The notes below the pieces were generated by a model. That model was not told the DNA's origin, ran no database searches, and saw nothing but the letters and a program-made list of their open reading frames with translations. A DNA stretch of 64,000 bases from Chiloscyllium plagiosum (taxonomy: Eukaryota). Shown piece after piece: positions 2,590 to 63,630 of this stretch (its first letter is position 1; each line of letters opens with the position of its first letter). The stretch is from assembly GCF_004010195.1 (NCBI RefSeq), contig NC_057719.1:16111744-16175743 (forward strand), written 5' to 3'. The position numbers and the translations under genes were made by a program.

Positions 2590-3960
2590 GTAGTCGAGTA
2601 ACTACTGGAGAAACTTCTGAATGAGGGAATTAATGTCCACTTGGAGAGTCAAGGATTAATCAGGGATAGTCAGCATATCATTGTCAGAGGAAGGTCTTGC
2701 TTAACAAATTTGATGGAATTTTTAAGGGGAGGTGACCAAGTATGTATATGAGGGTAGTGTTGTTGATGTAGTATATGGATTTCCACAAAGTCCACAACAG
2801 GAGTCAGATAAATAAGGTAAAAGCATCTAGAGTAACTTGGCAAGTTGGAGCTAAAATTGGGAGGAGACGGAGGGTGGTGGTAGAAGGCTGTTTGTGTGAC
2901 TGGAGACTGGTGTGCAGTGGCATAATACAGGAATCAGTGCTGGATCCCTGCTTGATCATGATATATATAAATGATATAGAAGAAAATATGGGGTGCGGGG
3001 GATGATAAGTAAGTTTGATGACACAAAGATTGGCTTGATGGTTCACAGTGAGGAAGAAGGTCTTAGGTTACAGGTGGACATCGACAAATTAGTCAGATGG
3101 GTAGAACAGTGGCAGATGGAATTAAAACTGTGAGGTGATGCACTTTGGAAGAAATAACAAGAAGAGGGAGTACTCAATGAATGGCAAGACACTAGGAAAC
3201 ACAGAGGAACAGTGGAATCTTGAGGTGCTAGTGCACAGATCCCTGAAGATGGCAGGGCAGGTTAATAGAATAGTTAAGGTGGCATATAGAACACTTGCCT
3301 TTACCAATTGTGGCAGAAATTATAAGAGTAAGGAGGTTATGTTGGAGCTGTACAGAACTTTGGAGCTGGATTACTGTGTGCAGGGTCGCTGCACTATAGG
3401 AAGGATGTGACTGCACTGGAGGAGATGCAGAGGAAATTCATCCAGGTTGCTGCCTGGAAAGGAGAAGTTTAGATGTGAAGAGAGGCTGGATAAGCTCGAG
3501 TTGTCTTCTTCAGGCACAGAAGGCCTGATTGAGATGTACAAGTTTATATGAGGGGCCTTGAAAGGCCTCATGGAAAGCAGCTGTGGCAATAACAGCAGGG
3601 GCATTGTTTAAACTGTTTAAGAGAAATGCTTTCAGCCAGGGATCGGTGGAAACTTGGAATGCATTGCATGGATGAGGAGTTGAGGTGAAAAACCAAGGTG
3701 AAAGTGAGGACTGCAGATGCTTGAGATTAGAGTTGAAACTGTGGTGCTGGAAAAACACAGCAAGTCAAGCAGCATCCGAGGAGCAAGAGAATTTACGTTT
3801 CAGGCAAAAGCCTTTCATCAGGAAACCTCACAACTTTTCAAAGTACTTGAATGAGCACTTGAGTGATGGAAATTGGGACTAGAGTAGGTTTAGACTGGTT
3901 TTTTGTTGATACATTTTTGATGGGCTGAAGGGCCTCTTCAGAACTGCATGAATGTATGAC
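2590..3960 (+). mobile_element. Degenerate CR1 LINE (RT domain to 3' end), interrupted by a PLE repeat
   Basis: ORF fragments RRRVVVEGCLCDWR...YINDIE and MHFGRNNK...LYRTL; CR1-type 3' UTR. Confidence 0.9.
3695..3824 (-). mobile_element. Solo Penelope-like terminal repeat (family A) with hammerhead motif
   Basis: Minus strand reads TTC-CTGATGA-AAGGC-TTTT-GCCT-GAAACGTA. Homologous to the terminal repeat attached to the GIY-YIG ORF remnant at about 14 kb. Confidence 0.8.
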
Positions 3961-4317
3961 AAAAGAGTTATAGATCATGGTCTAGCTACCTAAAGGAATC
4001 TTATTATAACTAATATCCTTCACAAAAGGTTGAGTAAGCTTTATTCTTGTTATTATGTAAATAGGTCACTAAGGGAATGAGGGCGGGAGAGAAAAAAAAT
4101 GAATAGGAACTGTCTGAAATAAATGGCCATTGCAAGTGCTTTAGTCCAAGGTGCTAAACAGAAAATGACTCTTCTATTCAGTATACACCTTTTACTGGAA
4201 GATTGCAGTTTTAAAATATCTTCACCAGCAAGTGCTCCAAGTGAGATTGTAAGATACAGGGTCCAAATTTAACACTATCCAGTCAATGGCAATGGCTGAG
4301 TGGAGGTGAGAGTTGAG

Positions 4318-5201
4318 CGCAGCAGGTCAGGCAGCATCCAAGGAACAGGAGAATCTACGTTTCGGGCATGAGCCCTTCTTCAGGAATGTTTGCCCAGCAG
4401 GCTAAGATAAAAGGTAGGGAGGAGGGACTTGGGGGAGGGGCGCTGGAAATGCGAAAGGTGGAAGGAGGTCAAGGTGAGGGTGATAGGCCAGAGTGGGGGT
4501 GGGGGCGGAGAGGTCAGGAAGANNNNNNNNNNNNNNNNNNNNNNNNNNNNNNNNNNNNNNNNNNNNNNNNNNNNNNNNNNNNNNNNNNNNNNNNNNNNNN
4601 NNNNNNNNNNNNNNNNNNNNNNNNNNNNNNNNNNNNNNNNNNNNNNNNNNNNNNNNNNNNNNNNNNNNNNNNNNNNNNNNNNNNNNNNNNNNNNNNNNNN
4701 NNNNNNNNNNNNNNNNNNNNNNNNNNNNNNNNNNNNNNNNNNNNNNNNNNNNNNNNNNNNNNNNNNNNNNNNNNNNNNNNNNNNNNNNNNNNNNNNNNNN
4801 NNNNNNNNNNNNNNNNNNNNNNNNNNNNNNNNNNNNNNNNNNNNNNNNNNNNNNNNNNNNNNNNNNNNNNNNNNNNNNNNNNNNNNNNNNNNNNNNNNNN
4901 NNNNNNNNNNNNNNNNNNNNNNNNNNNNNNNNNNNNNNNNNNNNNNNNNNNNNNNNNNNNNNNNNNNNNNNNNNNNNNNNNNNNNNCCTCCTTCCACCTA
5001 TCATTTCCAATGCCCCTCCCCTAAGTCCCTCCTCCCTACCTTTTATCTTAGCCTGCTGGACACACTTTCCTCATTCCTGAGGAAGGGCTCATGCCCGAAA
5101 CGTCGATTCTCCTGTTCCTTGGATGCTGCCTGACCCGCTGCGCTTTTCCAGCAATACATTTTCAGCTCTGATCTCCAGCATCTGCAGTCCTCACTTTCTC
5201 C
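4318..5201. mobile_element. Penelope-like element with inverted terminal repeats spanning an assembly gap (N 4523-4986)
   Basis: The two arms are reverse complements of each other. A 17-bp direct repeat TGGAGGTGAGAGTTGAG at 4301-4317 and 5202-5218 is the TSD. Hammerhead motifs at about 4353-4388 (-) and 5071-5110 (+). Confidence 0.85.
5071..5110 (+). ncRNA. Candidate minimal hammerhead ribozyme (family A)
   Basis: UUC-CUGAGGA-A-GGGC-UCAU-GCCC-GAA-ACGU-C-GA. Confidence 0.6.
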
Positions 5202-5525
5202 TGGAGGTGAGAGTTGAGTCTAACCTCTCCCATGCACTACTGCTGCTGGAACCAGTCCAATGCCTGCGATTTTGCCACATTAAATAATAACTGCGACATG
5301 TCCTTCCCCAGGCTCCACTTACATTCAAATAAAAATGTGTCTTTGATTATATGCTTGTCACTGCTGCCCAGTCTGAGGAAAATTAAGAAGATTTTTCAGT
5401 GACTCAATGTACAACTTATGGACATGGGATACAAAACAGCCTCCAGCAGGGCTCTACATTGAAAACTTTGTGCTTTTGCTACAGCCCGGTGTTTGGTATG
5501 GATAGATAAGGGGTATTATGTTTCT

Positions 5526-5750: not shown

Positions 5751-5903
5751 ACATTAACTAATTCAAGGTCAGGCATGCCATCAAACCTGTAGTGCAGAAA
5801 ACCAAGGGGTTGCATTCCTTGAAACAGTTCAGTTGTACAGCTATCAACTCTATTAAAAATGCACTGTGAACTAGATCCAGGTGATATTGTTTTCAAAACT
5901 CAC

Positions 5904-8442: not shown

Positions 8443-8658
8443 AGGCACAGCAGGTCAGGCAGCATCCGATGAGCAGAAAAATCGACGTTTTGGGCAAAAG
8501 CCCTTCATCAGGAATAGAGGCCAATCAGGAATAGATGAAGGGCTTTTGCCCGAAACATCGATTTTCCTGCTCCTCGGATGCTGCCTGACCTGCTGTGTTT
8601 TTCCAGCACCACGCTGATCTAAACTCTGGTTTCCAGCATCTGCAGTCCTCACTTTTGC
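8443..8658. mobile_element. Short palindromic PLE-derived insertion (family A)
   Basis: Inverted arms around about 8520; near-identical 16-bp flanks CAAGGGAAGGGCAGAG (8427-8442) and CAAGGGGAGGGTAGAG (8659-8674). Confidence 0.8.
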
Positions 8659-8712
8659 CAAGGGGAGGGTAGAGTCCTATCACTTTGGGAGAATACCAGG
8701 TAGTTTCTTTTA

Positions 8713-9062
8713 ACTCATTCACAGGACAAAGGCATCACTGGCTAGGCCAGCCTTTATTGTCCATTCCTAATTGCCCAGATGGCAATTAAGAATCAATTAC
8801 ATTGCGGTGGGTCTGGAGTCACATGTAGGCCAGACCAGGTAAGAATGGCAGTTTCCTTCCCTAAAGGGCATTAGTGAGCCAGATGGGTTTTCCCTGAAAA
8901 TTGACAATGGATTCACAATCATCATCAGGGTTGTATTTCCAGATTTTTATTGAATTCAAATTCCACCATCTGTCATGGCTGGATTCAAACCTGAGTCCCC
9001 AGAACATCACCCGAGTCTCTGGACTAATAGTCCAGCAATAATGCCACTAGACTATTGCCTCC
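8713..9062 (-). mobile_element. tRNA-derived SINE (second family)
   Basis: tRNA-like head on the minus strand. Homologous copies at 16406-16745 (-), 38715-39050 (+) and 42835-43162 (+). The tail resembles the LINE end at about 48520. Confidence 0.75.
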
Positions 9063-12000
9063 CCCTGGAAAGTGGGTAAAGGACAAAGGAAATACTCAGA
9101 CCTGTTCAGTTATAAACAGAACAATCCAACTCACTGGGTGTATGTTATAATATCATTTAGAAAGATGCCAAGAATATTCACTCACAGCTTTAAGAGACAC
9201 TTAACAGTGGGAGGCAGATGGAATCCCTCTCAAACGAAAACAATGTTTCACAAACTCAGAGGTGCTTTTTTGGATTTCATTTGGTACTTATTTTTTTAAA
9301 TCATCTAAATGAGTAGAAGTGGCAGAATTTGCAACACACTTTTATTGGCTAAATTGGCTCATTAGATTTTAAGCTTTTTTTTCCATCTTCAGAACACATT
9401 AAAAAATTAAAATATATTATTGAGAATTATGAGAAAGCTCTCCAAATTTTGAGGAAAAATGAAAAGAGAATCCAATATAAGAGCAAAGGACTGGGGGAAA
9501 AGGTGATTGTGCATGCTGATTGCTTATTTATCTGATAACATTGAAAAAAGTTTCCATTTTAATCTTTTGGCTTGTTCACCTTCATTGTGTTCTATTTCCT
9601 TCAGATAGTTTGATAAAGTGTTCACCAAAACTCATTTTCAGAGCCACATCCCCTTCCTGAATGATTGTCTCCAGCTCTGTTATACCCTGCACAGATTCCA
9701 AATGAAGGTCCATCCTTCATGTTTTGAATCCTCTCAAGATGACAACTATCTTAGAGACGTACAGCACTCTTCATACTGCTACTCCCACCACATCCTGAGA
9801 TCTACACTCAGTGTTGTTGTGCACTGCCGCACGTACACTCTGGACCTCTCTGTCCATTAGCACCATCTCAATCCCAAAGGTGTCCCATGCCCCAGTTCTA
9901 TTTCTTTCTTTATTGTATTCGCACTTAACAAGAAACGTTTTCCTCTTTGTTTGAGGTGTAAAGGCATGCAAACTCCAAAAACACTTAGGAGCAAAAGCTC
10001 CTCTGGAACTTTCCTCCCCCAGACTCCAACCTCATCTCTTCTTTTAATCTTGCTGTGTATTTGCTATACTCTCTGAACCTTCCCTCCCCCCAACATCTGT
10101 TCCATTTTGTCCTCTCCCGACTCTGTCAACGGTATAAAAGAATACCATTTTCCAGCCCATTCCAATTCTGAACAGTCATATCAGACTCAAAACAGCAATT
10201 TTGTTTCTCTTTGCAGATGATACTAAACCTGCTGAGTTTCTCCAACATTTTTTGTTTTCTGTATTTGAGATTTTCAGCATCCGCAATATTTTGTGTTCAG
10301 TTATTATAGCAATGAGCAGGCTGGCTATTGATTTTACTTACTTTTGGAGATCTGTTTCCAGGTTTACATGGGGAACTTGCTGTTTTGCTTATATTCTACA
10401 GATAAGTCCCCAGGCAACTGAGACAATAAAGTGGCACTGCAGCTTAGAGCTGCTTCCCAACTAGATGCTAGGTCACCGCATCACAGAAGTGTTAAAGTGC
10501 AGAAGGAGGCCAATTAGCCCATTATACTTATACCTGCAATGATGACTGCATGGTAAAACTGTTGACAAACTATTGGATTGCAACAAGCACATCCATACAT
10601 GATTCCCCGACATTATGTCCAATCCAAGTGCAGGTCAGTGGGATTATTGCAAAGCCAATAACATCAGACTGACATAGTGGGTCGGAAAACATGCCGTCAT
10701 AAGAGCAAATGTAGGACATTGGCATCCTGTACTTGGAAAATGAGGCTTTGCGTGAAAGGTATGGCCTACGAGGGTCTGACTCACACTGCATTTGATGTTT
10801 TTAAGCTTTTCAGACCAATAGCCAGGGGCCCACTTTTGGGTCATGGGTGGTCTTCTTCATATCATTAGTTGGTACATTTCCAATGAACCAGTGCATGCAG
10901 AAAGCCCACCTGGGAGCTGTACCTGCAGTTAAATGCTACCGTGAGGAGAGTTTATCAGGCATACTTCAAAGATGTAGTCCCTGCTGCTGTCCGACATAGC
11001 CAGATCAACCAGCAGCCATACCATTCCCAGCTCATGGAGCAGCACTGACCTCGCTATATACAGGACCTTGAAAAACTCACCAAGAAAGGCATTTAAAACT
11101 CTGTCAGATATCCTGTGAAACAGTAGGTTCTATTCATACATCTGGCATCAAATCATCATCAATATCTATGGAACCCTGGAATTTATGCACCACATACAGC
11201 CACCACCTCAGCACCAATCCAACAGGAGAGAAACTTGTCTTTGACATTCCTTGAAGACAACTGGCTGCGCTCAAATGAATGCACAAAGGATCGAGGCACT
11301 CTCCTTAAGGTGAAAGGTGAGGGGGAATGACCTGAAGTATATTTGTGGCTATGAGGATCAAACCATGCAGCACATCAAAGCAATCTGCCCACTAACATCA
11401 GTTGTGGGAGGCACATAATTTCTTCACTCAATACCTCAGAAGGTCAAACCAGCCATCCAATTTTAACCAGACACCATCATAGAAAAAGACAAATGGTAGG
11501 GTTCCCCAACATGAAGTGTCAATGAAAAACAATTCACCAAGAACACTTGACTAAAAACAAGATCACAAATCATATCAAATTTCAAAGAATCTTGCGAACT
11601 ATTTCAAATTATAAAATGATTTGCCAATTGGTCAGTGTGAAAATATCTAGTAGCAAGAGAAGACATAATTGATCTATATTTACCTTATATTTCCGCTCAC
11701 ACAAAATAAGCCTCTTATGTAGAGGCTGGGATTTGAGAAGGTATACACCTATTCCATTTTCTGTATCCATTTGTGCTGCAGAAGCTAGCAGCCTGTGGAG
11801 ATGGTATCATCTGAGTGCAGGACTTCCCACTGCTGGTGACATTTGCCCAGTAATTAGAGTCCATCTGGGACTGTTTTAATGGGTTCAAGAGTCATTTGTC
11901 AGTCAGTCATTTTTGGTCAGTTAGAGGCAGCTGAAACTTAGTGCAGCTGAAAGACTGAAGTATGGGGAAACCCTGATGTAGAGTCAGCCTTAGCTAAATT

Positions 12001-13941: not shown

Positions 13942-14898
13942 AAGGTAAAAACAATGACTGCAGATACTGGAAACCAGATTCTGGATTAGTGGTGCTGAAA
14001 GAGCACAGCAGTTCAGGCAACATCCAAGAAGCAGCAAAATTGACGTTTCAGGCAAAAGCCCTTCATCAGGAATAAAGGCAGAGAGCCTGAAGCGTGGAGA
14101 GATAAGTTAGAGGAGGGTGGGTTGGGGAGAGATGAGGCGTTCTTCTTCCATGCGTCTGGTGGTGAGGGAGCAGCGGTGAAGGAGGCCCAGGACCTCCATG
14201 TCCTCGGCAGAGTGGGAGGGGGAATAGAAATGTTGGGCCACGGGGAGGTGTGGTTGATTGGTGCGGGTGTCCCGGAGATGTTCCCTAAAGCGCTCTGCTA
14301 GGAGGCGCCCAGTCTCCCCATTGTAGAAGAGACCGCATCGGGAGCAACGGATACAATAAATGATATTAGTGGATGTGCAGGTAAAACTTTGATGGATGTG
14401 GAAGGCTCCTTTAGGGCCTTGGATAGAGGTGAGGGAGGAGGTGTGGGCGCAGGTTTTACAGTTCCTGCGGTAGCAGGGGAAGGTGACAGGACGGGAGGGT
14501 GGGTTGTAGGGGGGCGTTGACCTGACCAGGTAGTCACGGAGGGAACGGTCTTTGCGGATGGCGGAAAGGGGTGGGAAAATATATCCCTGGTGGTGGGGTC
14601 TTTTTGGAGGTGGCGGAAATGTTGGCGGATGATTTGGTTTATGCGAAGGTTTGTAGGGTGGAAAGTGAGCACCAGGGGCGTTCCCAATTCCTCCGCCTCC
14701 GCCTCCGCCGTATCTGCTCCCAAGAGGACCAGTTCCACCACAGAACACACCAGATGGCCTCCTTCTTTAGAGACCGCAATTTCCCTTCCCACGTGGTTAA
14801 AGATGCCCTCCAACGCATCTCGTCCACATCGTGCATCTCCGCCCTCAGACCTCACCCCTCCAACCGTAACAAGGACAGAACGCTCCTGGTGCTCACCT
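13942..14898 (-). mobile_element. Penelope-like retroelement remnant with GIY-YIG endonuclease, terminal repeat and inverted 5' segment
   Basis: Translation PCYRRNCKTCAH...SFTCTSTNIIYCIRCSRCGLFYNGETGRLLAERFREH...VAQHF shows the PLE CCHH motif and GIY-YIG domain. Segment 14681-14898 is inverted. Hammerhead motif at about 14039-14073. Confidence 0.92.
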
Positions 14899-15399
14899 TG
14901 TTGGACTGAAGAGCCTGTTTCTACACTGTAGGGAATCTAATCAAAGGAATGGAGGGATGATGGACCCTGTGCAAGCAGAACGGATTAATTTAATTTGGTA
15001 TTTTATTCAGCACGACATCATGGGCCAAAGAGCTCGTTCCTGTGCTGTATTATTCTATGTTCTGTGTTCTAGGAGAACTGATAGAAGTGTATAAAATTCT
15101 AATTGGGTTAGACAGATTAGATGCACAGACAATGTTTCTCCTGGTTGGGGAGAAGCAGGGATTAGCGTCTCAGGTCTAGCAGCATCTATGGAGTGTAATC
15201 AGAATTAACATTTGGCTCAATTGACCCTATCTCCGTTCTGAGGAAGTGTCACTCAACACAAACCATTAACTTTGATTTCTCTCCACAGATGTTGCCAGAC
15301 CTGCTGAGCTTTTCCAGCAATTTCTATTTTTGTCTCTGATTTACAGCATTTGCAATTCTTCCAACTTTTTTTAAAGATGGCATTAAACAGTTTTTAAAA

Positions 15400-17060
15400 A
15401 AGCATATACCTGTAATTGCATTGGTCAAAAGATTGGATAAAATATTAAAAGACAGCAAAGAATGATTAAAAGGGTAGTAAGGAGGGGGAAAATTAGAGTA
15501 CAAGAGAAAGCTGGCTAGAAATACAGACACACAGTGTTTCTATACATATGGATGAAAAAAAGGAGTTAACAAAGTGATTATAGATCCTAAGAAAAGTGAG
15601 GGAAAATAAGGAGATGGCGGATGAATTGAACAGGTATTTTGTTTTAATCTTCAATACAGGGGATACAAAAGACAACCCACAAATAGCTGTAAATCAGGTC
15701 AAAAATCAAACAACACCAAGTTAAAGTCCAACAGGTCTATCTGATATTGCAAGCTTGGAGAAAGCTTTCCATTTCAAATAAATCTGTTGGACTCTAACCT
15801 GATGCCATTTGACTTTTGACGTTGTCTATTTCAGACCAACTCCAGCATCTCCCCATCATAGCTGTAAATCATGAAAGAGAACAGAAAGATGAATTCAAGA
15901 AAACCAAAATCACCACAGACTTTAGTTGAGCAAATTGTTGAAGCTGTGGACTGACAATTCCCATGTCCTGGTAGATTCCATCTTAGGGTCTTCAAAGAAA
16001 TGGCTAGTGAGATAGTTGATGTGTTGGTTTTAATATTCGAAACTCCCCCTTATTCAGGGAAGGTTCTATTCAAGTCAAAAATAATGACTATAGTTCCTTT
16101 CGTTAAAAAGGGGTGGAGACAGAAAGCAAGAATCTACAGGCCAGTTCACATGTGCCATAGGAAAGATGTTAGAAGCTAATATTAAAAACATCATAGCAGG
16201 GCACACAACAAAATTCAAAATAATCAGGCACAATCAACTTTTAATGAAAAGGAAATCATGTTTTTCCACTTTTTTGAGAGGGTAACATGTGCTATGGATA
16301 ATGGGGGGGGGGGGCACTGGATGTAATTTGTTAGATTCCCAGAAGGTGTAAATTATCACACGAAAGGCTATTGAAACAAGTAAAAGCTGTAGAGATTTTT
16401 AAAAATTCATTCATGGGATGAGGGAATCTCTGACTAAGTCAGTATTTATTGCTATCCCCAATTGCCCAGAGGGCAGTTAAGAGTCATTGTTGTGGGTCTG
16501 GAGTCACATATATGTCAGACCAGGTGAGGATGGCGGTTTCCCACTCTCAAGAACATTAGTGAACCAGATAGGATTTTCTGACAATCGACAATGAATTCAT
16601 GGAATCACTAGACTCTTACTTCAAGACTTTTATTGAATTTAAATGCCACCATCTACCATGGCAGGTTTGCAACACTGATTCCCAGAACATTACCTGGGTC
16701 TCTGAATTAACAGTCCAGTGATGATATCACCAGGCCATCGTCTCCCCATCAGGTCAGGGGATATTAACATAATGGCATGGAAACAAGATTGGCTGGCTAA
16801 CAGAATCTGACGGTAGACATAAATGTGTCTTTCTTTGGTTGGTAAGATGTAATGAGTTACATGTCACATGGACAGATGCCAGGGTCTCAACCTTCTAGAA
16901 GTTATATAAATGACTTTGATGAAGTTGGAAATTCGCTAGGAAAGAAACAATAGGTAGGGAAGCAAGCTATGAAAAAGACATGAGGAAGCTATTAAGGTTA
17001 AGTAAGGTTAAATTGGTTAAGTAAGTAAATAAAGATCTGAAAACTGAGGTATAGTGCAGG
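15400..17060 (+). mobile_element. Old degenerate CR1 LINE with nested PLE (about 15700-15860) and SINE (16406-16745) insertions
   Basis: CR1-like decayed motifs (gagatggcggatgaattgaacaggtattttg, aatctacaggccagtt, ggaaatcatgttt) interrupted by other repeats. Confidence 0.7.
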
Positions 17061-18920: not shown

Positions 18921-19230
18921 CCTCCATCGCCAGACCATAGCAACATGACGTTTGGAGGAAGAGCACCTCATCTTCCACCTAGGAACCCTCCAACCACAAG
19001 GGACGAAAGGCTTAACAGACAATCAATTTTTCAATGTATAATTTCAGTTACATCACACTGTAAATTTTTGCTATAAATTCTGTGTTAGGATTGAGCCCTC
19101 CACTATCACCTGATGAAGGAGCGTCGCTCCAAAAGCTAGTGTGCTTCCAATTAAACCTGTTGGACTATAACCTGGTGTTGTTTGATTTTTAACTTTGTAC
19201 ACCCCAGTCCAACACCAGCATCTCCAAATC
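18921..19230 (+). mobile_element. PLE fragments: GIY-YIG C-terminal piece plus family-B terminal repeat with hammerhead motif
   Basis: LEEEHLIFHLGTLQPQG-like coding remnant, then TATAAAT...CAC-CTGATGA-AGGAGC-GTC-GCTCC-AAAAGCTA-GTG. Confidence 0.75.
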
Positions 19231-19860: not shown

Positions 19861-19925
19861 TCTTATATATCAGTTACTACATTGTGACCACAAAATAAAA
19901 TTTAACATGAGAAAGAGAACCCTAC

Positions 19926-22012: not shown

Positions 22013-24251
22013 CTAATTTAGTAATAGGCTGATGTTCAAGTTATATAATTCTGATATCTAATTCATAAATATGCTTAATTTTAATGCCTCAAGAAAGAAA
22101 TCAATACAAATCCTGTAGTGTGTAACTGTGATTAGAAAATACATCAATATTTATAATTGGTCACAAAGCACTTCACGAGGCACCTAATAACAGGAAAACG
22201 GGATGGCATCTAACCCAGATTACTCTTCCAGGTTATTCTAGAGCAGTGCAAAGAGTGAGACACTGAACTCGTAACAAACATTTCCCTCATTAAAACCGAA
22301 CTCCTAAGTCTTAGTGGAATCCAGCTTTGATATCAGTCACTTACCCGGTGAAGGTGTAACCATCTGTAGACCTGCCATTCTCCCAGATACTCAGACTCCA
22401 AGACTTTTTGGAATTATTTTTAAAGTAAGTTTTGAGAAGATTTGTAGCTCAGGTTGAGGTTCTGGATGTATTTTTAAAGTTATGAATGTTCTCTGCATAT
22501 CACAGGACACCTGTATAAATAAAAGGAATGTTTCTTTATTTTCAAAAAAAGCTTAAGTAGTTTTCAAAGGCATTGAGTATTGTATTAGAAAATCATAAGA
22601 TTAATGTAATCCAATAACTAAAATACAATTGCAAAATAATAAAATGCATATTGTTCAAACTGGAACGGACACCACAGGGACCAGCAACAATGAGTTATTG
22701 CTCTGTATACAAAAAAAAATTACAGTACACAATACATATTAAATTAAATTCAATTGAAGTCAGTGATATTTTGTGTTAGAACCCATAATAAATCAAGGGA
22801 AAATATCCTTTAGAAATTTGCACTTAAAAAGCAGGTGCTTCACTCAACTGGTATTTATCTTTGGTAGCAGTTCTGAAGAAGAATCACATAAATATTAACT
22901 CTGTTCACTCTCCAGAAGATGACAGAACAGCTACATTGCTCCAGAATGTCACGTTTAGCTTTGGATTTCCAGCTTGTCCAGTACATTTTTTTTATTACAG
23001 GAGTTACCTTTGCTGCATTGTAAGATTTAAAATCCTTGCCATGCTGCAATCATAGGTTGGAATTCCAATGCAGTACTGAGTGTAATTCGTGGTCAATAGT
23101 ACTGGTTAGGTCAGACATTGAACTAGTGAGATAAGGCTCCAGTTTAAGTAGCTGTTAAAATCTGAAGACATTATTCAAAAAGAAATACATTCTCGCTGCA
23201 TCCTGGCAACATTACTCCCTAAATGGACAGAGTTGAAAATCAACATCAAATACCAGTTTTTCTTATTATTTTTCCCACAGTTTCACTAAGTGACTGCTAT
23301 ATTTGATCTGTACAACATTATTACATTACAAAGCATAACTGAAGTGGGGTGGTGGTGATGAGCAAGAAGTAAGACATTGATTGACATCTTCATTGGGTCG
23401 TGGATTGTTTCATTATGACTTCATTTGTTTAATTTAATTCTTTGTTATTATATGATGTTCTTGGCTATATAATGCAAGCTGAGAGCATTCCGTATCTTCA
23501 GTTTCCAGAACACACAAGTAATCCAATGATGCTAATTAGTCAAGCGAAATGTTCTCTTTATCCAATCATTCATTTTCTTACAATGGCTTCAGTATGCAGC
23601 CAAAGAAATTTAATGCAAAAAAAACTCAAGATTTTGCTCTTGCGTTTAATGTTTCAGAACATGTATATCAATGTCCTATCAGTCTTCATTCTTTGCTGGT
23701 TTTTGCCGTCACTTCCCAAGATAGTAGGTGAGAGCTGAACTGTTTAGAGTTCAACCAAAGGCTGGTGTTTCAAGGATTTAGAAATTCAATAAAATTGGAA
23801 AGTTTGTGGAGTAAAATTACATTTTTATAGGTTTAGTACAGAATCGTATTTATCTAACATAAATGCATAGCAATAAGGACTTATCTCAAGGAGACCTACA
23901 AGTGCCCATCATTACGAATCCAGGCTGATACTGATTCTAATTAACAGTACTGGCTTTGGTAAGTGGTCAAAGAATATATACATTGACCTTTTTAGCTATG
24001 GACTTGCCTTGGGTGAGAAAAACTCATTAACTCATTTAACCATGAGCTTGCCTTTGTGGAAAAAAAGGCTGTTAATATTTTAATGGAAGTGGCAAAGGCA
24101 CTTGCCAAAGGTAGCTGAAAACCTGTTTGAACAGAACAGCAAGGTCCAATATTTTGCTAAATATTATGCCAAGCAAACATGTCTTAAAAATCAATCTAAT
24201 AATTGTTCAGTTAGCATAACAATTGTTATTGTACACAAATAAATGTTTTTT

Positions 24252-25722: not shown

Positions 25723-25725
<3 letters not shown>

Positions 25726-26065: not shown

Positions 26066-26254
26066 CATAGACAGGCCGGAGGCTGGGAGAACACAACAAG
26101 CCAGGCAGCATCAGAAGGTGGAGAAGACAACGGTTTGGGTGAACACCATAACGTTGACTTCACCTCCTGACGCTGCCTGGCTTGCTGTGTTCTTCCAGCC
26201 TCCTGCCTGTCTACTTTGGATTCCAGCATCTGCAGTAATTTTGTCTCTAACCAA
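26066..26254. mobile_element. Palindromic PLE-terminal-repeat-like insertion (family E)
   Basis: About 70-bp inverted arms; flanks GAATGCTTACAA (26054-26065) and GAATGCTCACAA (26255-26266). Shares the GATTCCAGCATCTGCAG tail with family A. Confidence 0.7.
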
Positions 26255-27977: not shown

Positions 27978-28098
27978 TGATTCCTGAAGAAGAGCTTATG
28001 CCTGAAACGTCGATTCTCCTGCTCCTTTGATGCTGCGCTTTTCCAGCAACACATTTTTCAGTTCTGATCTCCAGCATCTGCAGTCCTCACTTTCTCCT
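27978..28098 (+). mobile_element. Solo family-A PLE repeat with hammerhead motif
   Basis: ATTC-CTGAAGA-AGAGC-TTAT-GCCT-GAAACGTC; TSD AGGTCCA(T/C)TCAGTA at 27964-27977 and 28099-28112. Confidence 0.82.
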
Positions 28099-35194: not shown

Positions 35195-35559
35195 TATTAT
35201 CTAACTCCTAACATATAGACACATGGAGATAAACAGACTCTTCTTCAACCTCTTCTCTTGTTCTTCTTCCTATTGCCACCTTCCTTATTTGCCGAAAACC
35301 TCCAACTTTTTCCCATTCTGAAGAAGAAATATTACAGAGCTGAGAAGATAACTCAGTTTCTCGCTCACACAGATGTGCCCAGACCTACAATATTTTGCAG
35401 TGTTTACTGTTTTTTGGTCCAGATTCTCAGCATCACCTTATCTTGTTTTTTGTACTGTCTACTTCCCCGGTTTAACAACTACACCAGTTAAGACTGCTGC
35501 TAATACCATATACTTGATATAACCACAAGTTGTAAAGAAAGGTTAGATAGGCTATGACA

Positions 35560-37130: not shown

Positions 37131-38165
37131 GGGAGAAAGTGAGGACTGCAGATGCTGGAGATCAGAGTCGAGAGTATGATTCTGGAAAAGCACAGCTGGT
37201 CAAGCAGCATCGGAGGAGCAGGATAATCAACGTTTCGAGCATAAGCTCCTCATCAGGAATGAGGCTTGTGGGGCCAAGGGGGCTAAGAGATAAATGGGAG
37301 GGGGTGGGGTTTGAGGGCGGAGTTTCTGTCCTTGTTGTGGTTGGAGGGGTGGGGTTTGAGGGTGGAGTTGTGGGAAGTGGAGGGCATCATCAACCATGTG
37401 GAAGGGGAAACTGTGGCATTTATAGAAGGAGCCAATCTTCTAGGTTCTGTGGTGGAACTGGTTCTCCTGGGAGAAGATGCAGCGGGGGCAAAGGAATTGG
37501 AAATAAGGGATAGCATTATTCCCAATTCCTCTGCCTCCACCGCATCTGCTCCCAGGAAGACCAATTCCATCACTGAACACAACCATATATCCTCCTTCCC
37601 TCCTGGAACCTTCCCCTGCCACCACAAGAATTGCAAAATCTGCGCCCACACCTCCCCCCTTTACTCTGTCCAAGCCCCCAAAGGAGCCTTCCACTTCCAT
37701 CAGAGATTTACCTGTACTTCCTTACACATCATTTACTGTGTCCATTGCTCCCGATGTGGTCTCCTCTACATTAGGAAGACAGGACACCTACTTGCGGAAC
37801 GCTTCAGAGAACATCTCTGGGACACACACACAAAAAAACCCCACTGCCCTGTGGCTGAATACTTTAACTCCCCCTCCCAGTCCCATAAAGACATGCAGGT
37901 CCTAAGCTGCCTCCATTGCTAATTCCTTACCACCCCACACCTGGAGGAAGAATCCCTCATCTTCCATCTTGAGACTCTCCAACTACATGGGATCAATGTG
38001 GATTTCACCAGTTTCCTCATTTCCCCTCCCCCCACATTATCCCAGATCCAACCTTCCAACTCAGCATCACCCTCATAACCTGTCCTACCTGCCCATCTTC
38101 CTTCCCACCTATCCGATCCAACCTTCTCTCCGACCTATCACCTTCACTCCCACCTCCATTGTACT
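37131..38165. mobile_element. Penelope-like element remnant: minus-strand terminal repeat and RT piece joined to plus-strand GIY-YIG region
   Basis: ORF 37311-37922 reads PCHHKNCKICAH...FTCTSLHIIYCVHCSRCGLLYIRKTGHLLAERFREH. Hammerhead motif at about 37226-37260 (-). Confidence 0.9.
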
Positions 38166-42160: not shown

Positions 42161-42480
42161 ATTCGGAGATGCTGGTGTTGGACTGGGGTGTACAAAGTTA
42201 AAAATCACACAACACCAGGTTATAGTCCAACAGGTTTATTTGGAAGCACTAGCTTTCGGAACACCGCCCCTTCATCAGGTTCATCACAACTGCCTGATGA
42301 AGGAGCGACGCTCCGAAAGCTGGTGCTTCCAATTAAACCTGTTGGACTATAACCTGGTGTTGTGTGATTTTTAACTTCATCAGGTTCATCACAACTGCCT
42401 GATGAAGGAGCGACACTCCGAAAGCTGGTGATTCCAATTAAACCTGTTGGACTATAACCTGGTGTTGTGTGATTTTTAAC
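42161..42480. mobile_element. Family-B PLE-derived insertion: one inverted and two tandem 105-bp hammerhead-bearing units
   Basis: Minus copy at 42161-42280; direct units at 42270-42374 and 42375-42479; TSD TTCCTCATCACA at 42149-42160 and 42481-42492. Confidence 0.85.
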
Positions 42481-49476: not shown

Positions 49477-52400
49477 AGAACATAGAACAGAGAATAATAC
49501 AGTGCAGAACAGGCCCTTTGGCCCTCAATTTTGCACTGACCAGTGAAATAATCTAAGCCCATTCCCCTACACTATCCCATCATCATCCATGTGCTTATCC
49601 AAGAATTGTTTAAATCTCCCTAATGTGACTGAGTTAACTATATTGGCAGGCAGGGCATTTCACGCCCTTACCACTCTCGCAGTAAAGAACCTGCCTCTGA
49701 CATTTGTCTTAAAACTATCCCCCTTAATTTGTAGTTATGACCCCTTGTACAAGCTGACGTCATCATTCTAGGAAAAAGACTTTCACTGTCTACCTTATCT
49801 ATTCCTCTGATCATCTTGTATGTCTCTGTCAAATCTTGTCTTATCCTTCTTCTCTCCAATGAGAACAGACCCAAGTCTCTCAGCCTTTCCTCATAAGACC
49901 TTCCCTCCAGACCAGGCAACATCCTGGAAATCTCTATGCACCTTTTCCAATGCTTCCACATCCTTCCTGTAATGGGGCGACCAGAACTGTACACAATATT
50001 CCAAGTGTGGCGGTACTAGCATTTTGTATAGTTGCGGAATGACATTACGGCTCTGGAACTCAATCCTTCTACCTATAAAACCTAACACTTCATATGCCTT
50101 CTTAACAGCACTATCAACCTGGGTGGCTATTTTCAGGGATCTGTGTATATGGACCGTGAGATTCCTCTGCACGTCCACATTACCAACAATCTTTCCATTG
50201 ACCCAGTATTCTGCCTTCCTGTTATTCTTACCAAAGTGAATCACCTCAAATTTATCTGCATTTGCCATCTCTCAGCCCAATTCTGCAGTTTATCCAAGTC
50301 CCCCTGAAACTTGCAACATGCTTCCACACTGTCCACTACTCCACCAACTTTAGTGTCATCTGCAAACTTACTGACCCATCTACCTATGCCTGCGTCCAAG
50401 TCATTTATAAAAATGACAAACAGCAGTGATCCTTGTGGCACAGACTCCAGGCTGAATATTTTCCATCAACCTCCATTCACTGCCTTCTTACATCCATTGA
50501 CCCAGTATTCTGCCTTCCTGTTATTCTTACCAAAGTGAATCACCTCAAATTTATCTGCATTTGCCATCTCTCAGCCCAATTCTGCAGTTTATCCAAGTCC
50601 CCCTGAAACTTGCAACATGCTTCCACACTGTCTACTACTCCACCAACTTTAGTGTCATCTGCAAACTTACTGACCCATCCACCTATGCCTGCGTCCAAGT
50701 CATTTATAAAAATGACAAACAGCAGTGATTCTTGTGGCACGGACTCCAGGCTGAATATTTTCCATCAACCTCCATTCACTGCCTTCTTACAGAAAGCCAG
50801 TTCCTAATCCAAATTGCTAAATCACCCTCAATCCCAAGCCTCTGCATTTTCTCCAACAGCCTACCATGTGGAACCTTATCAAAAGCTTTACTGAATTCCA
50901 TGTACACCACGTCAACTGTCCTACCTTCATCCACATGCTTAGTCATTTTCTCAAAAACCTCAGTGAGGTTTGTGAGACATGACCTGCCCCTGACTATCTG
51001 CAATCAAATTGTTGATTGCTAGATGATTATAAATCTTAACTCTTATAATCCTTTTGAAAACTTTTCCTACAACAGATATAAGGTTCACTGGTCTATAATT
51101 ACCTGGGTCATGTCTACTGGCCTTCTTGAACAAGGGCACAACATTTGCAATCCTCTAGTCCTCTGGTACTAAACCTGTAAACTATGATGACTCAAAGATC
51201 AAGGACAAAGACTCCGCCATCTCCACCCTAACTTCCCAGAGAATCCTTGGATAAATCCAATCCGGCCCAGGGGACTTGTCTACTTTCACTCCTTCTAGGA
51301 TTTATAACACCTCTTTCTTACTAACCTTGATCCTTTCTAGTCTAATATCCCATACCTCATGGTAAAAATAATGACTGCAGATGCTGGAAACCAGATTCTG
51401 GATTAGTGGTGCTGGAACAGCAGTTCAGGTAGCATCCGAGGAGCAGTAAAATCGACGTTTCAGGCAAAAGCCCTTCATCAGGAATACCATACCTCATTCC
51501 TCTTCTCTCCAATATTCTCCTTTTCCTGAGTGAAAGCAGACAAGAAAAATTCATTTAGCACTACTCTGATCTCTACAGGGTCCACACAACTTCCCACTTC
51601 TGTCTTTGACTAGCCCTATCCCTAGTCATCCTTTTATTCCTCACATACCTATAGAAAGCTTTAGGGTTCTCCTTTATTCTACCTGCTAAAGACTGCTCAT
51701 GTCCTCTCCTTGCTCTTCTTAACTCTGTCTTTAAGTCCTTCCTAGCTAATCTGTAACTCTCCATCGCCTCATCTGAACCATCTTATCTCAACTTCACATA
51801 AGCCTCCTTCTTCTGCTTAACAAGAGATGCAATTTCTTTAGTAAACCATGGTTCCCTTACCTTATCACTTCCTCCCTGTCTGACAGGGACATACCAATCA
51901 AGGACACACAATATCTGTTCCTTAAACCAGCTCCCCATCCCCTACATTTTGCTACCCCATTTTTTGCATCCTAAGTCTTGCCTAATCACATTATAATTGT
52001 CCTTTCCCCATCTATAACACCTGCCCTGTGGCATGTACCTATCCCTTTCCATCGCTAAACTAAACATAACCAAATTATGGTCACTCTCTCCAAAGTACAC
52101 ACCTACCACTAAATCAAACACCTGGCCCGGTTCATTATCAAGCACCAGATCCAGTGTGGCCTCCCCTCTTGTCAGCCCTTCGATATATTGTGTGAGGAAA
52201 CCCTCCTGCACTCATTGGACAAAAACTGATCCATCCGACATACTAGTGTTATAGCATTTCCAGTCAATGTTGGGGAAGTTAAAGGCCCCATAATGACCAT
52301 CCTGTTCCTTTCATTCCTACCCAGAATCGTTTTGCCAATCCTCTCCTCCACGTCCCTAGAATTCTGCAGAGGCCCTATAAAAAACTCCCAGCAGCATGAC

Positions 52401-52674
52401 CTCTCCTTTCCTGTTTCTAACCTCAGCCCATACCACCTCAGTAGAGGAGTCCTCATCAAAAGTTCTTTCAGCCACTGTTATACTGTCCTTGACTAACAAG
52501 GCTACACCTCCTCCTCTTTTACCATTCCCTGGTCTTAATGAAAGATCTAAATCCTGGAACCTGCAACATCCATTCCTGACCCTGCTGTATCCATGTCTCC
52601 GAAATGGCCACAACATCGAAGTCCCTATCTATGCTGCAAGCTCATCTATCTTATTTTGGATACTTCTGGCATTG
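49477..52674 (-). mobile_element. CR1 LINE (endonuclease to 3' end) with a 299-bp internal tandem duplication and a nested PLE repeat
   Basis: RGGGVALLVKD, GRSCLTNL, FSKAFDKVPH, KFADDTK and LEYCVQFWSP motifs; tail TAGAACATAGAAC on the plus strand. Confidence 0.95.
51361..51486 (-). mobile_element. Solo family-A PLE repeat with intact hammerhead core
   Basis: Minus strand reads ATTC-CTGATGA-AGGGC-TTTT-GCCT-GAAACGTC; TSD CCATACCTCAT at 51350-51360 and 51487-51497. Confidence 0.85.
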
Positions 52675-57852: not shown

Positions 57853-58074
57853 TTCAAAGTTTGTGAGAAGATTTGTAGCTCAGGTGCTCGTTGTTGTAGT
57901 TCCAGTTGTCAGTTTCAGCCGGAACCGGAAGCGGCAAATTCAAACCACTATAAATACCAGAGGAAACATCACAGAAGCGCTTTACAGGAGGCTCCCAAGC
58001 ACTGAGGATGTCACCTAGACAAGGGACGAAACGTCTGCAACACAAATTCCCAGCTCGGCGAACATAACCATAGC
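57853..58074 (+). mobile_element. Family-C PLE-like terminal repeat with TATA box and hammerhead motif, inserted in CR1
   Basis: TSD AGGCAAGAACTG at 57841-57852 and 58075-58086; TATAAATA then GCA-CTGAGGA-TGTCACC-TAGACA-AGGGAC-GAAACGTC-TGC. Confidence 0.8.
57999..58038 (+). ncRNA. Candidate minimal type-I hammerhead ribozyme (predicted GUC cleavage after 58035)
   Basis: CUGAGGA and GAAA core, stem I GCA/UGC, imperfect stem II, palindromic ACGU in place of stem III. Confidence 0.65.
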
Positions 58075-60651: not shown

Positions 60652-60805
60652 ATAGAATCATAGAGTCATACAGCACAGAAACAGACCCTTCATTCCAACC
60701 ATTCCATGCCAATCATAATCCCAAACTAAAAGACTCCCACTTGCCTGCACTTGGCTCATACCCCTCCAACTATTCATGTACTTATCCAAATGTCTTTTAA
60801 ACATT
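60652..60805 (-). mobile_element. CR1 3'-end fragment (a similar one lies at 61762-61910)
   Basis: CATAGAATCATAGAGTCATACAGCACAGAAACAGACCCTTC is the reverse complement of the CR1 tail. Confidence 0.8.
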
Positions 60806-63499
60806 ACACTATTACTTTTATTTTACATTCCCAACCATTATTTTGTTGTTTTGATCCAGGAAAGAATTTTATTGAACATTAAACTATACTTAATAATTTA
60901 ATCATCTTTTTTATGTAAATTGTTCCGATTCTTATTTTACCCATGCAGAAAATGTTTATGACTATCCATTTGGAATTATATTCCTGTCCTGGAGCTAATT
61001 GAATTCTTTAAGGAAGGGTACACTGCATTTGTGCCGATTCAATTATGAGGCATTAGAAATATTTGATTTTCATTCGTGGTTGCTACAGATTTGGATAACA
61101 TGTTCCTTTTTGCTCCCTAGAGTTGACATCCTTTCCTGTAAGCAAAGACCATGAAAGGAAAGGCAAGGACAAATTTGCACAAATGGCATGAAAGATGTTC
61201 AATATTTGCAACTTGAACTGCTGCCTGGTGCTGGTCATTGAAGGTTAAAAAAAACTTAGATACAATTTCATTATACGATGGCAGGACCTGTTTTTCTATG
61301 GTCAGTTAAGATCAGCCCAATTTAACTACAATTATCTTGGGATTTTGTGAAGCTCAATGGAAGTTACCACAAGTGGTAAGACAAACAATTTTGAAGACTT
61401 TGTGAGATTTCAGAGGGGCCATCAGAATGTATGGCTCTGTTTCTTCTGTTGAAAATACGTGCTATAAAGTTATCAACAATAACCTGCCTTTAAAGTAGTG
61501 CCATTAACATATAAAAGACACCCAAGGCATTTCACAGAAATATAACATAGCAGTTGAGTGTTGTAAATGTCAAATTCCTTGTTTTATTATCCTCAGAATT
61601 TGGGCAATACTGACAGAGCCATGTTTCTGCCTTTCCTGATTTGTCCTCAGATTATTTATAAGAGTAATTTCAGAGTCTAGAGTGCTACTGGATAGGAATC
61701 ACACATACTGGGACAAGGTAGGTGTGCCATTTAAAGGTGCTAACACTACTATTATCAGACTTAGAGTCATAGAGGTTTACAGCATGGAAACAAGCCCCTT
61801 GGCCCAATGTTTCCATGCCACCCAATTTTCATCATTAGTCTAGTCCCATTTGCCTGCATTTGTTTCATATCCCTCCATAATTATCCCATCCATGTTCCAG
61901 TCCAAATGTTTCACCGTCTCAGTTTTGTCACTGAGGTGGTGATTGCCAATAACATTTGGGCAAATTTCCCGAGTGTATGCAATTTTCCCATACTCTTCCA
62001 CCACCATACTATTCCATATTATTATTGTTTGAGAGTTATCTGCATTGAGTTTGATTTGGCAATTTAGTTTCACCAATTGAAATAATTGTCAAACTCAAAC
62101 CGGTTGAAATAGCTGTCAGCTGTTTTTCTTTGTTTCAAAACTGATGACATTTTTTTATCTGTGATCCAGCCAACAGTGCAAAGCTGGTTTAAACAATAAG
62201 CTTTATGGAAAGGTATTGTGAAATAGCAATTTGCAACAGAACTGTAGACGTGGAGCAGTCTTATGTTCTTTTTACGGTAAGAACATTTCTTTAAAGAAGA
62301 ATTTCACTTCCTCATGTCTAACCTGCTAGCCCAAGTTGTCTCTGATTAGTTGTCACGATATCTATTCCCACTTTCACATGAAAGCAACATTCTTATAGTG
62401 TTGCATCATCACATATTTGTAATTCACGACCTGCTCACTTGACAAGGTAATTTACAATTGTGTTGTAACTAGGCACAAACATGATCATGTTATCAAATTT
62501 TCCAGAACACATTCTACTTCTATTTTCTGACCTGCCAACTGATCACAAACATCACAATTTTGTTTTCTTTTTACACTTCAGGATTTTTGATAGACAAGAA
62601 AGGCAAAGATTGTGGATACAGATAGGAAGGTGGCGTCGAGACCAAAACCAGATCAGCCCTGATCCCATTTGATTCCACATATGTATTATGTTAATGACCA
62701 GATAAATGGTTTATTGCTATGTAGATTGAGAGACAAATATTAGTTATGATACTACTTCTCTGAAGTACTATTATGGGATCACTTATACCCACATGAGAGG
62801 TCAGAGAGTGTCTCAGTTTACATCTCATCGAAACGATGGCACCTCTGACAGTGCAGCACCATCTCAGCACACATGGAATTCTCAGCATGGATTAGTGAGC
62901 TCAACAAGCCCTGAAGAACTTGAACCCACAACAAACTGAACCACAGCTCCTCATGGGAGCTAATGTTGGGAAATAACATAAGGGCAAGAATTTCCCAAAA
63001 ACCGATTGAGATTATGCCCAAAAAACGATGACTGAACAATGAGGTTCTAGATATTGCATTATGATTGTTGTGTTTACCAATGTCGAAGGGGTTGCATTGA
63101 CTATCTTGTCATTTTAGAATTTTAAGGAATGACATGGGATGCTTGAAAGACCGAATGATCCACACTTGTTCAAAAGTCCAACGTTTCGCAGGGGTCCTTC
63201 AGATGATGGGAAAGTGATGTCCCTCATACAAGCATCATAACTCTAAGGACTTTCTCATGAGGCAATGTTTCTGCTGCCTGATAAGTGAGCAGATTTTAGT
63301 GAAAGTTGGAAACATTCATGTCTGGTCAGAAAACTATAGCTTCACACCCATTGCAGGAATTAAGCATGAAACTGACACTATTATTCTTGGTGCTGTCTTT
63401 CAGATGAAATGTTTAACCTTTTCTGCTGGTGTGAAGTAGAAAAAAAAAGATGAAGCATGACTATGAGAACTTTTCCAGCATCCAATCAACACCATCTAA

Positions 63500-63630
63500 A
63501 CAGTTCTGAAGACGAGTCACTGGACTTGAAACCTGTTTCTCTCTCCATAAATGCTGCCAGACGTGCTGAGTTTCTCCAGCAATCTCTGTTTTTGTTTCAG
63601 ATTTCCAGCATCAGCAGTTTCTTAGATTTT
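63500..63630 (+). mobile_element. Family-D repeat with decayed hammerhead motif
   Basis: GTT-CTGAAGA-C-GAGTC-ACTG-GACTT-GAAAC followed by the family tail ATGCTGCCAGACGTGCTGAGTTTCTCCAGCAA. Confidence 0.7.

Follow-up and report, generated by a model that had tools for sequence, protein, structure and literature searches.

Hammerhead-bearing short repeats are scattered through a 64,000-nucleotide stretch of the Chiloscyllium plagiosum genome (the window). They are best explained as truncated, decaying 3' ends of Penelope-like elements (PLEs) from at least four lineages, and a pile-up of their 5' ends likely marks the 5' end of uncleaved template RNA; as a whole this explanation is judged quite probable. 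About 1.0 million copies are estimated for the genome, making up about 3% of sampled DNA, and some 140,000 of them would have an intact motif. The elements and hammerheads themselves are of a known kind; the value of the finding lies in the numbers.

Hammerhead arms in the window and the genome

An arm is a hammerhead together with roughly 90 or 125 nt downstream of it (in family A, measured from CUGA, as are the signed positions below). Family profile searches found 27 arms in the window, or 26 on a re-run against a larger set. These cover every coordinate given in an earlier note on this DNA, which had reported more than 15 short repeats with a hammerhead layout. Arms that it did not name lie near 1950-2069 (minus strand), 8534, 10163, 15171 (minus strand), 15688-15846, 22867, 26045-26250, 34679 and 35313. 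The units, with their target-site duplications (TSDs), are as follows.

1950..2158, both strands: family D head-to-head pair, both cores decayed, CUGA starts 2 nt apart
3699..3825, minus strand: family A solo arm, tailed, 5' end at -3 from CUGA (3821); core present, damage in stems I and II
4318..5201, both strands: family A head-to-head unit spanning an assembly gap; minus arm (CUGA 4383) without tail, plus arm (CUGA 5077) with tail, both intact; TSD 17 bp (4301-4317 / 5202-5218)
8443..8658, both strands: family A pair, head to head, meeting at the core; G12->A in one arm, its partner beginning inside CUGA; TSD 16 bp, 2 mismatches (8427/8659)
10163..10297, plus strand: family D arm, decayed
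13949..14936, minus strand: family A long copy with ORF remnant, hammerhead and tail; remnant 14107-14766 (CX4CXXC linker, GIY-YIG) directly upstream of the hammerhead (CUGA 14069); stem I damaged
15171..15374, both strands: family D head-to-head pair, cores decayed
15696..15857, both strands: head-to-head pair of family B, cut short downstream of CUGA, core absent; TSD 13 bp (15683/15858)
19002..19220, plus strand: family B arm preceded by about 108 nt of element sequence, G12->A
22867..22993, plus strand: family D arm, decayed
26066..26254, both strands: head-to-head pair of family E (a fifth, A-related family), truncated inside the hammerhead; TSD 12 bp, 1 mismatch (26054/26255)
27978..28098, plus strand: solo arm of family A starting at -4, with a mismatch in stem II; TSD 14 bp, 1 mismatch (27964/28099)
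35313..35437, plus strand: family D arm, decayed; a weaker one at 34679-34756
37134..37922, both strands: family A arm (minus, CUGA 37256, intact; stem II has changed in a compensatory way), then ORF remnants; the endonuclease remnant (37491-37919) is on the plus strand
42161..42479, both strands: family B unit of three arms; a minus arm with tail (CUGA 42278, intact) and, in tandem, two plus arms without tails (CUGA 42294 and 42399), both with G at position 17; TSD 13 bp (42148/42480)
51361..51487, minus strand: solo arm of family A starting at -5, motif intact; TSD 14 bp, 1 mismatch (51347/51484), with a perfect 11-bp core
57853..58074, plus strand: family C (Poseidon-type) copy, CUGA 58002, intact motif, no tail; 12-bp TSD; the insertion is in a LINE reverse-transcriptase remnant
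63497..63639, plus strand: solo arm of family D starting at -5; core present; stem I, NUH and palindrome lost

The earlier note had given solo copies their own TSDs of 11-17 bp. The duplications are there at the exact coordinates, but several of the supposed solo copies are halves of head-to-head pairs that share one TSD. No TSD was found at 7 of the 15 window units tested.

Across the genome, a structural descriptor applied to 120 evenly spaced 10-kb stretches gave 79 matches, compared with 12 and 6 in two Markov controls, and family profiles gave 350 matches compared with 0 in reversed sequence. A larger sample of 140 stretches holds 409 arms. The suggestion of a very abundant population was right.

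Judged by sequence, the repeats carry genuine minimal hammerhead-ribozyme motifs. The commonest form in families A, B, C and D has a CUGANGA plus GAAA core, one base before G10.1 and a G10.1-Y11.1 pair; helix III is absent, and a palindromic 15.1-16.1 tetramer is followed by H17. The palindrome is ACGU in A (110/171, the remainder mostly CpG decay) and C (14/19), and AGCU in B (26/31); in D almost all have decayed (ACGU in 2/33). Families A and B have C-G at pair 2.1-1.1, where C has A-U and D has U-A, a compensatory series, and within family C pair 2.3-1.3 is G-C, U-A or C-G in 19/19. With 12 copies from each of the four families, stems were paired in 84%, compared with at most 56% in 1000 shuffles, though kinship among copies means that no probability attaches to this comparison.

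None of the 9 Rfam matches in the window at E<=1 is a hammerhead; the Rfam models need helix III, so this is not evidence against the motif. The predicted minimum-energy fold of two copies is a stem II duplex rather than a hammerhead dimer, and that of the monomer is not a hammerhead either; such predictions are uninformative for tertiary structure.

The motif is complete in 6 of the 26 window arms (CUGA 4383-, 5077+, 37256-, 42278-, 51481- and 58002+). In another 6 the core is kept but stem I, stem II, the palindrome or NUH fails, so that 12/26 retain the core; in the other 14 it is mutated or missing. Family D has no intact copy in the window. The statement that copies keep their catalytic core was not confirmed: 8481 and 19107 carry G12->A, in addition to the position-17 changes at 42294 and 42399.

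Parent elements

Matches to the PLE C-terminal region (tblastn) lie upstream of the arms on the same strand, with a best E of 7e-78 for family A and values of 8e-50 for E, 6e-29 for D, 6e-10 for B and 2e-9 for C (locus L116). A single ORF, consisting of a reverse transcriptase and, at the C terminus, a GIY-YIG domain upstream of the 3' terminal repeat, is found as remnants in all families. Full-length relatives of 800-950 aa with RVT_1 and GIY-YIG share up to 50% identity. The motif features and this ORF link agree with the earlier reading of type I minimal hammerheads of Penelope origin. Family A was also said to be joined to GIY-YIG remnants, as is seen upstream of CUGA 14069 (PF01541 at E=0.0035, under the curated threshold).

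The long ORF of family A starts at about +162, beyond the tail. An intact full-length element was not recovered from the gap-rich assembly. A candidate "1051-aa open frame" was rejected, as an assembly gap had been read as X; the ORF is intact in 0 of 6 loci examined.

A CX2-5CxxC linker precedes GIY-YIG in A and B and is decayed in D. Families A, B, D and E are placed provisionally in the Neptune/Nematis clades, which have this linker. In family C the zinc-finger linker is absent from the one translation (L133) that reaches so far, and the flanking residues may resemble those of Poseidon.

Each family very probably represents the 3' end, truncated on the 5' side, of an ORF-bearing PLE of its own, and not an independent non-autonomous family.

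Copy ends and priming

Arm 5' ends pile up about 8-fold at the 5' edge of the ribozyme, and not at its predicted cut site. Ends were scored against a panel of long non-inverted copies; all-against-all extension is inflated by inverted pairs that match one another. The interval between +10 and -12 holds the ends of 106/252 A/E arms (0.033 per nt vs 0.004 on either side), 33/71 B arms (0.036 vs 0.004) and 60/124 D arms (0.059 vs 0.008-0.011), in a pile-up about 20 nt wide. Family C, a small sample of 42 arms and 8 pairs, has 3/42 and no excess. The pile-up is thus seen in the Neptune-type families and not in the Poseidon-type one. A measure independent of the panel agrees: CUGA starts are at most 30 nt apart in 63/97 A/E, B and D pairs, compared with 0/8 C pairs (p=4e-4). 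The commonest 5' loose end among the ends listed is -4, both in public DNA contigs (120) and in RNA reads (104). Copies that retain the ORF N-terminus also end there (6/24 between -13 and +2).

In three of the four families (A, B and D) arms therefore stop at the front edge of the ribozyme, which likely marks the start of the element RNA. Taken alone, the identity of the pile-up with an RNA 5' end is about evenly balanced. An initiator-like YYANWYY motif places its A at -4 in 60/68 A/E and 14/19 D long copies; family B has it in 0/39, though B has the pile-up. A G stands at the first mismatch in 25/61 A/E arms, duplicates and fold-back junctions among them, and in 4/20 B arms, which is suggestive only of an extra G derived from a cap. 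RNA reads show no site where many molecules begin or end; 93% of those placed continue into unlike sequence, on both strands, as passive host transcription would.

Alternatively, the same elements may have acquired these ends without any RNA 5' end being there. In this somewhat less likely account a folded or protein-bound hammerhead makes the reverse transcriptase stall, change template or fold back, or GIY-YIG cuts the cDNA at the edge of stem I. The modal end, -4, is where stem I begins, so a structural or nuclease cause fits equally, and B piles up without the initiator motif. About half of the A/E arms end outside the pile-up, many passing beyond it. At -4 the family A sequence is ATT, a triplet that the Anolis enzyme favours near its ORF-pLTR junction (PMC11167929), but the corresponding place is AGT in D and E, and neither of the two in B. 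Moreover, a polymerase moving 3' to 5' would meet the 3' side of the fold (about +32) first, yet most ends lie beyond the whole fold; and family C, with an equally good hammerhead and a longer stem II, has no pile-up.

At the predicted cut site (+27 to +29) 9 A/E arms end, where 2.6 are expected (nominal p=0.002), and about 5-6 of these are true junctions by inspection. CpG decay just upstream can halt alignment there, so the excess is only a weak hint. A splice acceptor, considered for the pyrimidine tract upstream of the core, was rejected: short copies share no 5' exon, and RNA reads contain no spliced joint.

Head-to-head pairs contain 44% of arms. Most pairs join one tailed and one tail-less arm within one TSD, and exactly one arm is tailed in 85/105 (p=5e-11 vs one half). 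The hallmarks of EN+ PLE insertion are all present, namely partial tandems, an inverted 5'-truncated copy, a tail at one end and a TSD. Twin priming at two start sites is the probable cause. By analogy with an Anolis Poseidon element studied in vitro, the protein would bind RNA downstream of the tail, make a nick in each target strand (with a spacing of about 14 bp here) and start reverse transcription at two internal sites. In the shark, one nick would prime at about +124 and the other at about +89, both cDNAs would run to an RNA 5' end near -4, and they would then be joined to each other or to the target. Against the explanation stands an account by Arkhipova et al. 2013 (PMC3846280), in which palindromic head-to-head junctions arise through self-priming, the template being antisense.

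The Anolis element, PAc (Frangieh et al. 2024, PMC11167929), has the same two internal start sites bracketing the tail, with both strands nicked and extended. Its TPRT in vitro starts about 120 nt downstream of the core, and the main template is uncleaved RNA. It differs in that its ORF starts in stem II, while the long ORF of family A starts about 162 nt downstream of CUGA, and in that its start site showed no strand difference in vitro, while 85/105 genomic pairs here are one-tailed. Canonical EN+ units (Craig et al. 2021; Arkhipova et al. 2013, PMC3846280) combine 5' truncation, an adjacent inverted copy and a 30-40 bp tail at one end. The shark units likewise have arms placed head to head, one of them with a tail of about 35 nt, as well as short TSDs and palindromic junctions; they differ in mostly comprising only hammerhead and tail, with a junction concentrated at the hammerhead 5' edge in Neptune-type families only.

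Short copies, decay and the role of the ribozyme

The earlier note had proposed at least four families of short derivatives in their own right. That these are retrozyme- or SINE-like elements propagating as units with their ribozyme is very unlikely. Solo short copies flanked by TSDs are very common (37/202 vs 8/201 in a control), and non-LTR retrozymes, tandem elements made from PLE ends, have been reported for vertebrates, among them one chondrichthyan (bioRxiv 10.64898/2026.07.22.740005). These are likewise ORF-less, hammerhead-bearing kin of PLE terminal repeats, but they form tandem arrays with one hammerhead per unit, unlike the dispersed singles and inverted pairs found here, which form no separate lineage. 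A few short tandem units do exist (3 intact same-strand neighbour pairs among the 409 arms in 140 stretches), but arrays are rare. The 5' ends are not fixed but form a continuous range that reaches the ORF. Short copies also have long neighbours as close as short ones, which largely refutes the idea: for short A copies the best identity is 0.899 with other short copies and 0.902 with long ones, and a long neighbour lies within 2.5 points for 75/76 A, 22/27 B and 42/51 D short copies. By the Anolis analogy, the protein-binding site would lie downstream of the tail and so be missing from short copies. They are better read as truncated PLE ends.

Sequence comparison indicates that inserted copies decay neutrally, the catalytic G12 included. 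G12 is changed in 17/122 family A copies, and neighbouring CpG sites in 15-32 of 122. Conservation of core and tail is 0.95 vs 0.96 in A/E (best-kept half of tail columns) and 0.93 vs 0.92 in B (whole tail). The core conservation that the earlier note had made its test holds between families, where the core is kept and stems covary, and not within them, where the core decays like the tail; this points to selection on active parents and not on inserted copies.

A host-retained pool of ribozymes processing host transcripts is scarcely credible, despite about 140,000 motif-intact copies and their sequence in RNA reads from both strands, since core positions decay like the tail (A/E, B), G12 is lost at the CpG rate, a schistosome monomer is inactive in vitro (PMC4209133), and a single motif without helix III cannot obtain a dimer from a head-to-head partner on the opposite strand.

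The ribozyme would then be selected only in active parents. Long copies would need a template that continues upstream, either a tandem read-through RNA or a circle arising by dimeric hammerhead cleavage and ligation. Linear uncleaved RNA would give only a dead copy of 90-130 nt, so making a circular or permuted template could be the job of the ribozyme. The full scheme is tentative: a Neptune-type transcript starts at the first base of stem I, a protein dimer twin-primes two fixed sites, and the ribozyme yields the circular or permuted template that enables the ORF to be copied.

In 2014 Cervera and De la Pena (PMC4209133) already described solo minimal hammerheads as "probably related to truncated PLEs", and the portion of that paper available reports them in fish Xena, Poseidon and Neptune elements. 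They share with the shark motifs the type I form, the lack of helix III, the extra base between A9 and G10.1, the G10.1-C11.1 pair, the palindromic tetramer, several families per genome and mostly single copies. The vertebrate maxima given there are about 4,000 (coelacanth) and 9,000 (Xenopus tropicalis), compared with about 140,000 intact and 1.0 million in total here, although the descriptors differ. The same portion names no cartilaginous fish and has no analysis of copy end positions. Searchable literature outside Repbase, Dfam and subscription papers contained no description of these families, their cartilaginous-fish copy number or the 5' pile-up, in keeping with the earlier remark that they may be poorly described in this group. 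Scale and pile-up go beyond that literature; Repbase, Dfam and paper supplements may hold shark PLE families.

A hammerhead motif search in genomes of this sort mostly turns up dead ends of retroelements. On the role of the PLE hammerhead, the start of the template and the origin of the one-tailed inverted unit, a genome with about a million insertions yields predictions at base level: the RNA should begin near -4 and reverse transcription near +89 and +124, and Neptune should differ from Poseidon. If the tentative scheme is true, the million insertions would be a fossil record of the switch from a linear to a circular or permuted template.

Identity of the repeats

The hammerhead-bearing repeats are truncated ends of Penelope-like elements (PLEs), with two classes of 3' end, head-to-head pairs in which one arm is tailed and, in the Neptune-type families, a pile-up of 5' ends at the edge of stem I. 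Here an arm is one match to the hammerhead plus tail, positions take the C of CUGA as 0, and A/E pools family A with a fifth, related family, E.

Every family has copies that connect, on the same strand, with the end of a PLE open reading frame (ORF), as translations also show. Families A, B and D have a CX2-5CxxC linker, which Craig et al. give as a mark of Neptune and Nematis. The linker is absent from the only family C copy read that far. Family C presumably has a Poseidon-like appearance; one of its eight ORF matches, in copy L153, is probably due to an A copy next to it. Intact relatives of the family A endonuclease remnant carry a reverse transcriptase and a GIY-YIG domain, and a first-look genome search for the remnant yields 102,556 candidates, a figure that is not a copy number.

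Nearly no A/E arm continues past the tail: sequence common beyond it has one true case among 162 arms, which runs into the element's 5' region. Since the long ORF starts at about +162 in natural family A copies, past the tail, the short (5'-truncated) A copies are ORF-less, as the earlier note had claimed. Its treatment of the short repeats as elements in their own right does not hold up. A long neighbour lies within 2.5 identity points of the best short neighbour for 75 of 76 short copies in A, 22 of 27 in B and 42 of 51 in D; judged by sequence, the short copies form no separate lineage.

L085 (about 330 bp) and L002 (about 1.2 kb) are internally deleted pLTR-to-pLTR units. L085 carries two intact hammerhead motifs in tandem and would be a natural candidate for dimer cleavage. 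Family A also has a short upstream frame, some 41 codons long (+46 to about +170), which opens within the tail region and extends over the start of the long ORF; both of these copies retain its stop.

Occurrence in the window and the genome

Self-BLAST and motif scans, both exact and fuzzy, re-find the repeats where the earlier note had placed them. A search with profiles from natural copies gives 27 arms in the window, or 26 on a re-run; an Rfam scan of the window lists no hammerhead. An arm is called intact if it has the core, G10.1 with four stem II pairs (in the conventional hammerhead numbering), the palindromic tetramer, the NUH site and two stem I pairs. By this rule 6 arms are intact, 6 have only the core and 14 have lost it, so that the core is kept, as claimed for the copies, in 12 window arms and gone in the others. 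The target site duplications (TSDs) of 11-17 bp claimed for several copies are present at 8 of 15 insertion units.

Other repeats in the window
24215-25121, 39232-41500, 57036-59407: larger LINE reverse transcriptase ORF remnants (RVT_1 matches)
3257-3363, 19282-19776, 49668-50791, 52629-53105: other LINE reverse transcriptase ORF remnants (RVT_1 matches)
50194-50791, 56829-57211, 31129-32037: local near-identical duplications (299-bp tandem, 99%; 171 bp, 99%; 154 bp, 94%)
8704-9046, 16485-16722, 38731-38891, 42986-43174: first dispersed family lacking a hammerhead
20620-20925, 30020-30138, 31838-32122, 55681-55954: second dispersed family lacking a hammerhead

The three largest non-LTR (LINE) remnants are 79-95% identical to one another, and the family C unit interrupts the one at 57-59 kb. 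Some of the local duplications may be assembly artefacts. The two dispersed families (74-81% identity) are probably SINE- or LINE-related.

Genome-wide abundance was estimated from 140 evenly spaced 10-kb stretches of contigs C1-C36 of the assembly (1,332,045 non-N bases; small contigs left out). The first 120 stretches yield 79 matches to a structure descriptor, where the Markov controls yield 12 and 6; the profile search gives 350, and 0 in reversed sequence. All 140 contain 409 arms, spread over 123 stretches and making up 3.2% of sampled bases; 130 have the core and 55 are intact. Scaled to the assembly, the total would be 1.04 million arms, with a bootstrap range of 0.91-1.17 million; 330,000 would be core-bearing and 140,000 intact (97,000-186,000). 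This genome-wide estimate bears out the description "very abundant". For coelacanth and Xenopus tropicalis, Cervera and De la Pena (PMC4209133) report about 4,000 and 9,000 motifs, respectively; the number here is far higher, but the descriptors differ.

A head-to-head partner is found for 178 of the 409 arms. In A/E the 3' ends form two groups, near +89 (tail-less) and +124 (tailed). Exactly one arm is tailed in 85 of 105 reciprocal pairs, both in 9 and neither in 11. Pair TSDs are 10-19 bp (36 pairs), shorter ones being beyond the search's reach. Such inverted one-tailed insertions are already described in Craig et al. and PMC3846280, and the two 3' ends correspond to the pair of internal start sites used in vitro by a Poseidon element of Anolis (PMC11167929).

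Genome-wide, about 200,000 short head-to-head pairs would form near-perfect RNA hairpins in read-through host transcripts. Two pairs in the window weakly match models of miRNA precursors, and PLE pairs are likely to give rise to false miRNA calls.

The hammerhead and its decay

At the family level the motif appears, from sequence comparison, to be a real minimal hammerhead. Stems I and II carry compensated changes between and within families, with CUGANGA and GAAA constant. In 48 of 260 parsed copies, whose sequences are related, pairing at six stem positions reaches 84%; none of 1000 shuffles exceeds 56%. Among inserted A/E copies, the majority fraction is 0.95 in the core and 0.96 in the best-kept half of the tail, and G12 is altered in 17 of 122 A copies, similar to other CpG positions. 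The expectation that the core is kept better than its surroundings is supported between families, where the stems covary, but not within them. A core constant across families and unprotected in inserted copies argues that selection on the ribozyme acted in the replicating parents.

The 5' ends and a proposed mechanism

Panels of long non-inverted copies served to map the 5' ends of the systematic sample and of copies present by chance in fetched loci; arms cut off by a gap or by the end of a stretch were treated as censored. The 5' end falls between +10 and -12 in 106 of 252 A/E arms (0.033 per base), in 33 of 71 B arms (0.036) and in 60 of 124 D arms (0.059); the density on both flanks is 0.004-0.011. 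Family C has no pile-up, with 3 of 42 arms ending there.

Because a panel lacking some subfamily could mimic a pile-up, three panel-free checks were applied. TSD-defined solo 5' ends lie from -2 to -16 in 12 of 27 A/E cases. At the pair junctions, no more than 30 nt separates the CUGA starts of the two arms in 63 of 97 A/E, B and D pairs, against 0 of 8 in C. Finally, in public data from an organism that is possibly of the same species or a near relative, one of the best-supported 5' loose ends listed is at -4 (DNA contigs 120, RNA reads 104). The predicted cut site is at +28 and the ends pile up elsewhere, so most templates would be uncut at that site. Ends at +27 to +29 are slightly in excess, which is a hint only.

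Twin priming at two internal start sites, followed by run-off of reverse transcription at an RNA 5' end near -4, would yield such copies. Run-off is favoured by an initiator-like YYANWYY motif with its A at -4 in 60 of 68 A/E and 14 of 19 D long copies, and by the ORF-bearing copies, 6 of 24 of which stop at the pile-up. It is also favoured by Drosophila Penelope, whose promoter is internal and TATA-less. Against it, the motif occurs in 0 of 39 B copies, the cap-G signal is weak, and no RNA start is seen in a poly(A) single-cell library, although such a library is poorly suited to reveal one. The pile-up may instead have a structural or nuclease cause. Run-off after twin priming can be compared with the Anolis element, for which PMC11167929 reports internal initiation with a binding site downstream of the start sites, nicking of both target strands, cleavage only with protein, and uncleaved RNA as the main template.

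Five of 24 copies with the ORF N-terminus (L214, L216, L217, L220 and L222) have 5' ends at +90 to +119, adjoining the two reverse-transcription start sites, as expected if a circular or tandem template is copied at unit length. Directly upstream of the hammerhead, at about -17 to -30, long family A copies have a splice acceptor-like pyrimidine tract ending in YAG. This resembles Drosophila Penelope, whose intron ends at helix I.

The motif class, its occurrence in fish PLEs, truncation-derived solo copies and the inverted one-tailed unit are already published. In searchable main texts neither a copy number for cartilaginous fish nor any mention of the pile-up was found, and the word Penelope is absent from the text of PMC11979771. 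The feature that the earlier note presented as four families is real, but as a catalogue it is an ordinary one of truncated PLE ends; it is the copy number and the clade-specific pattern of ends that deserve a targeted test.
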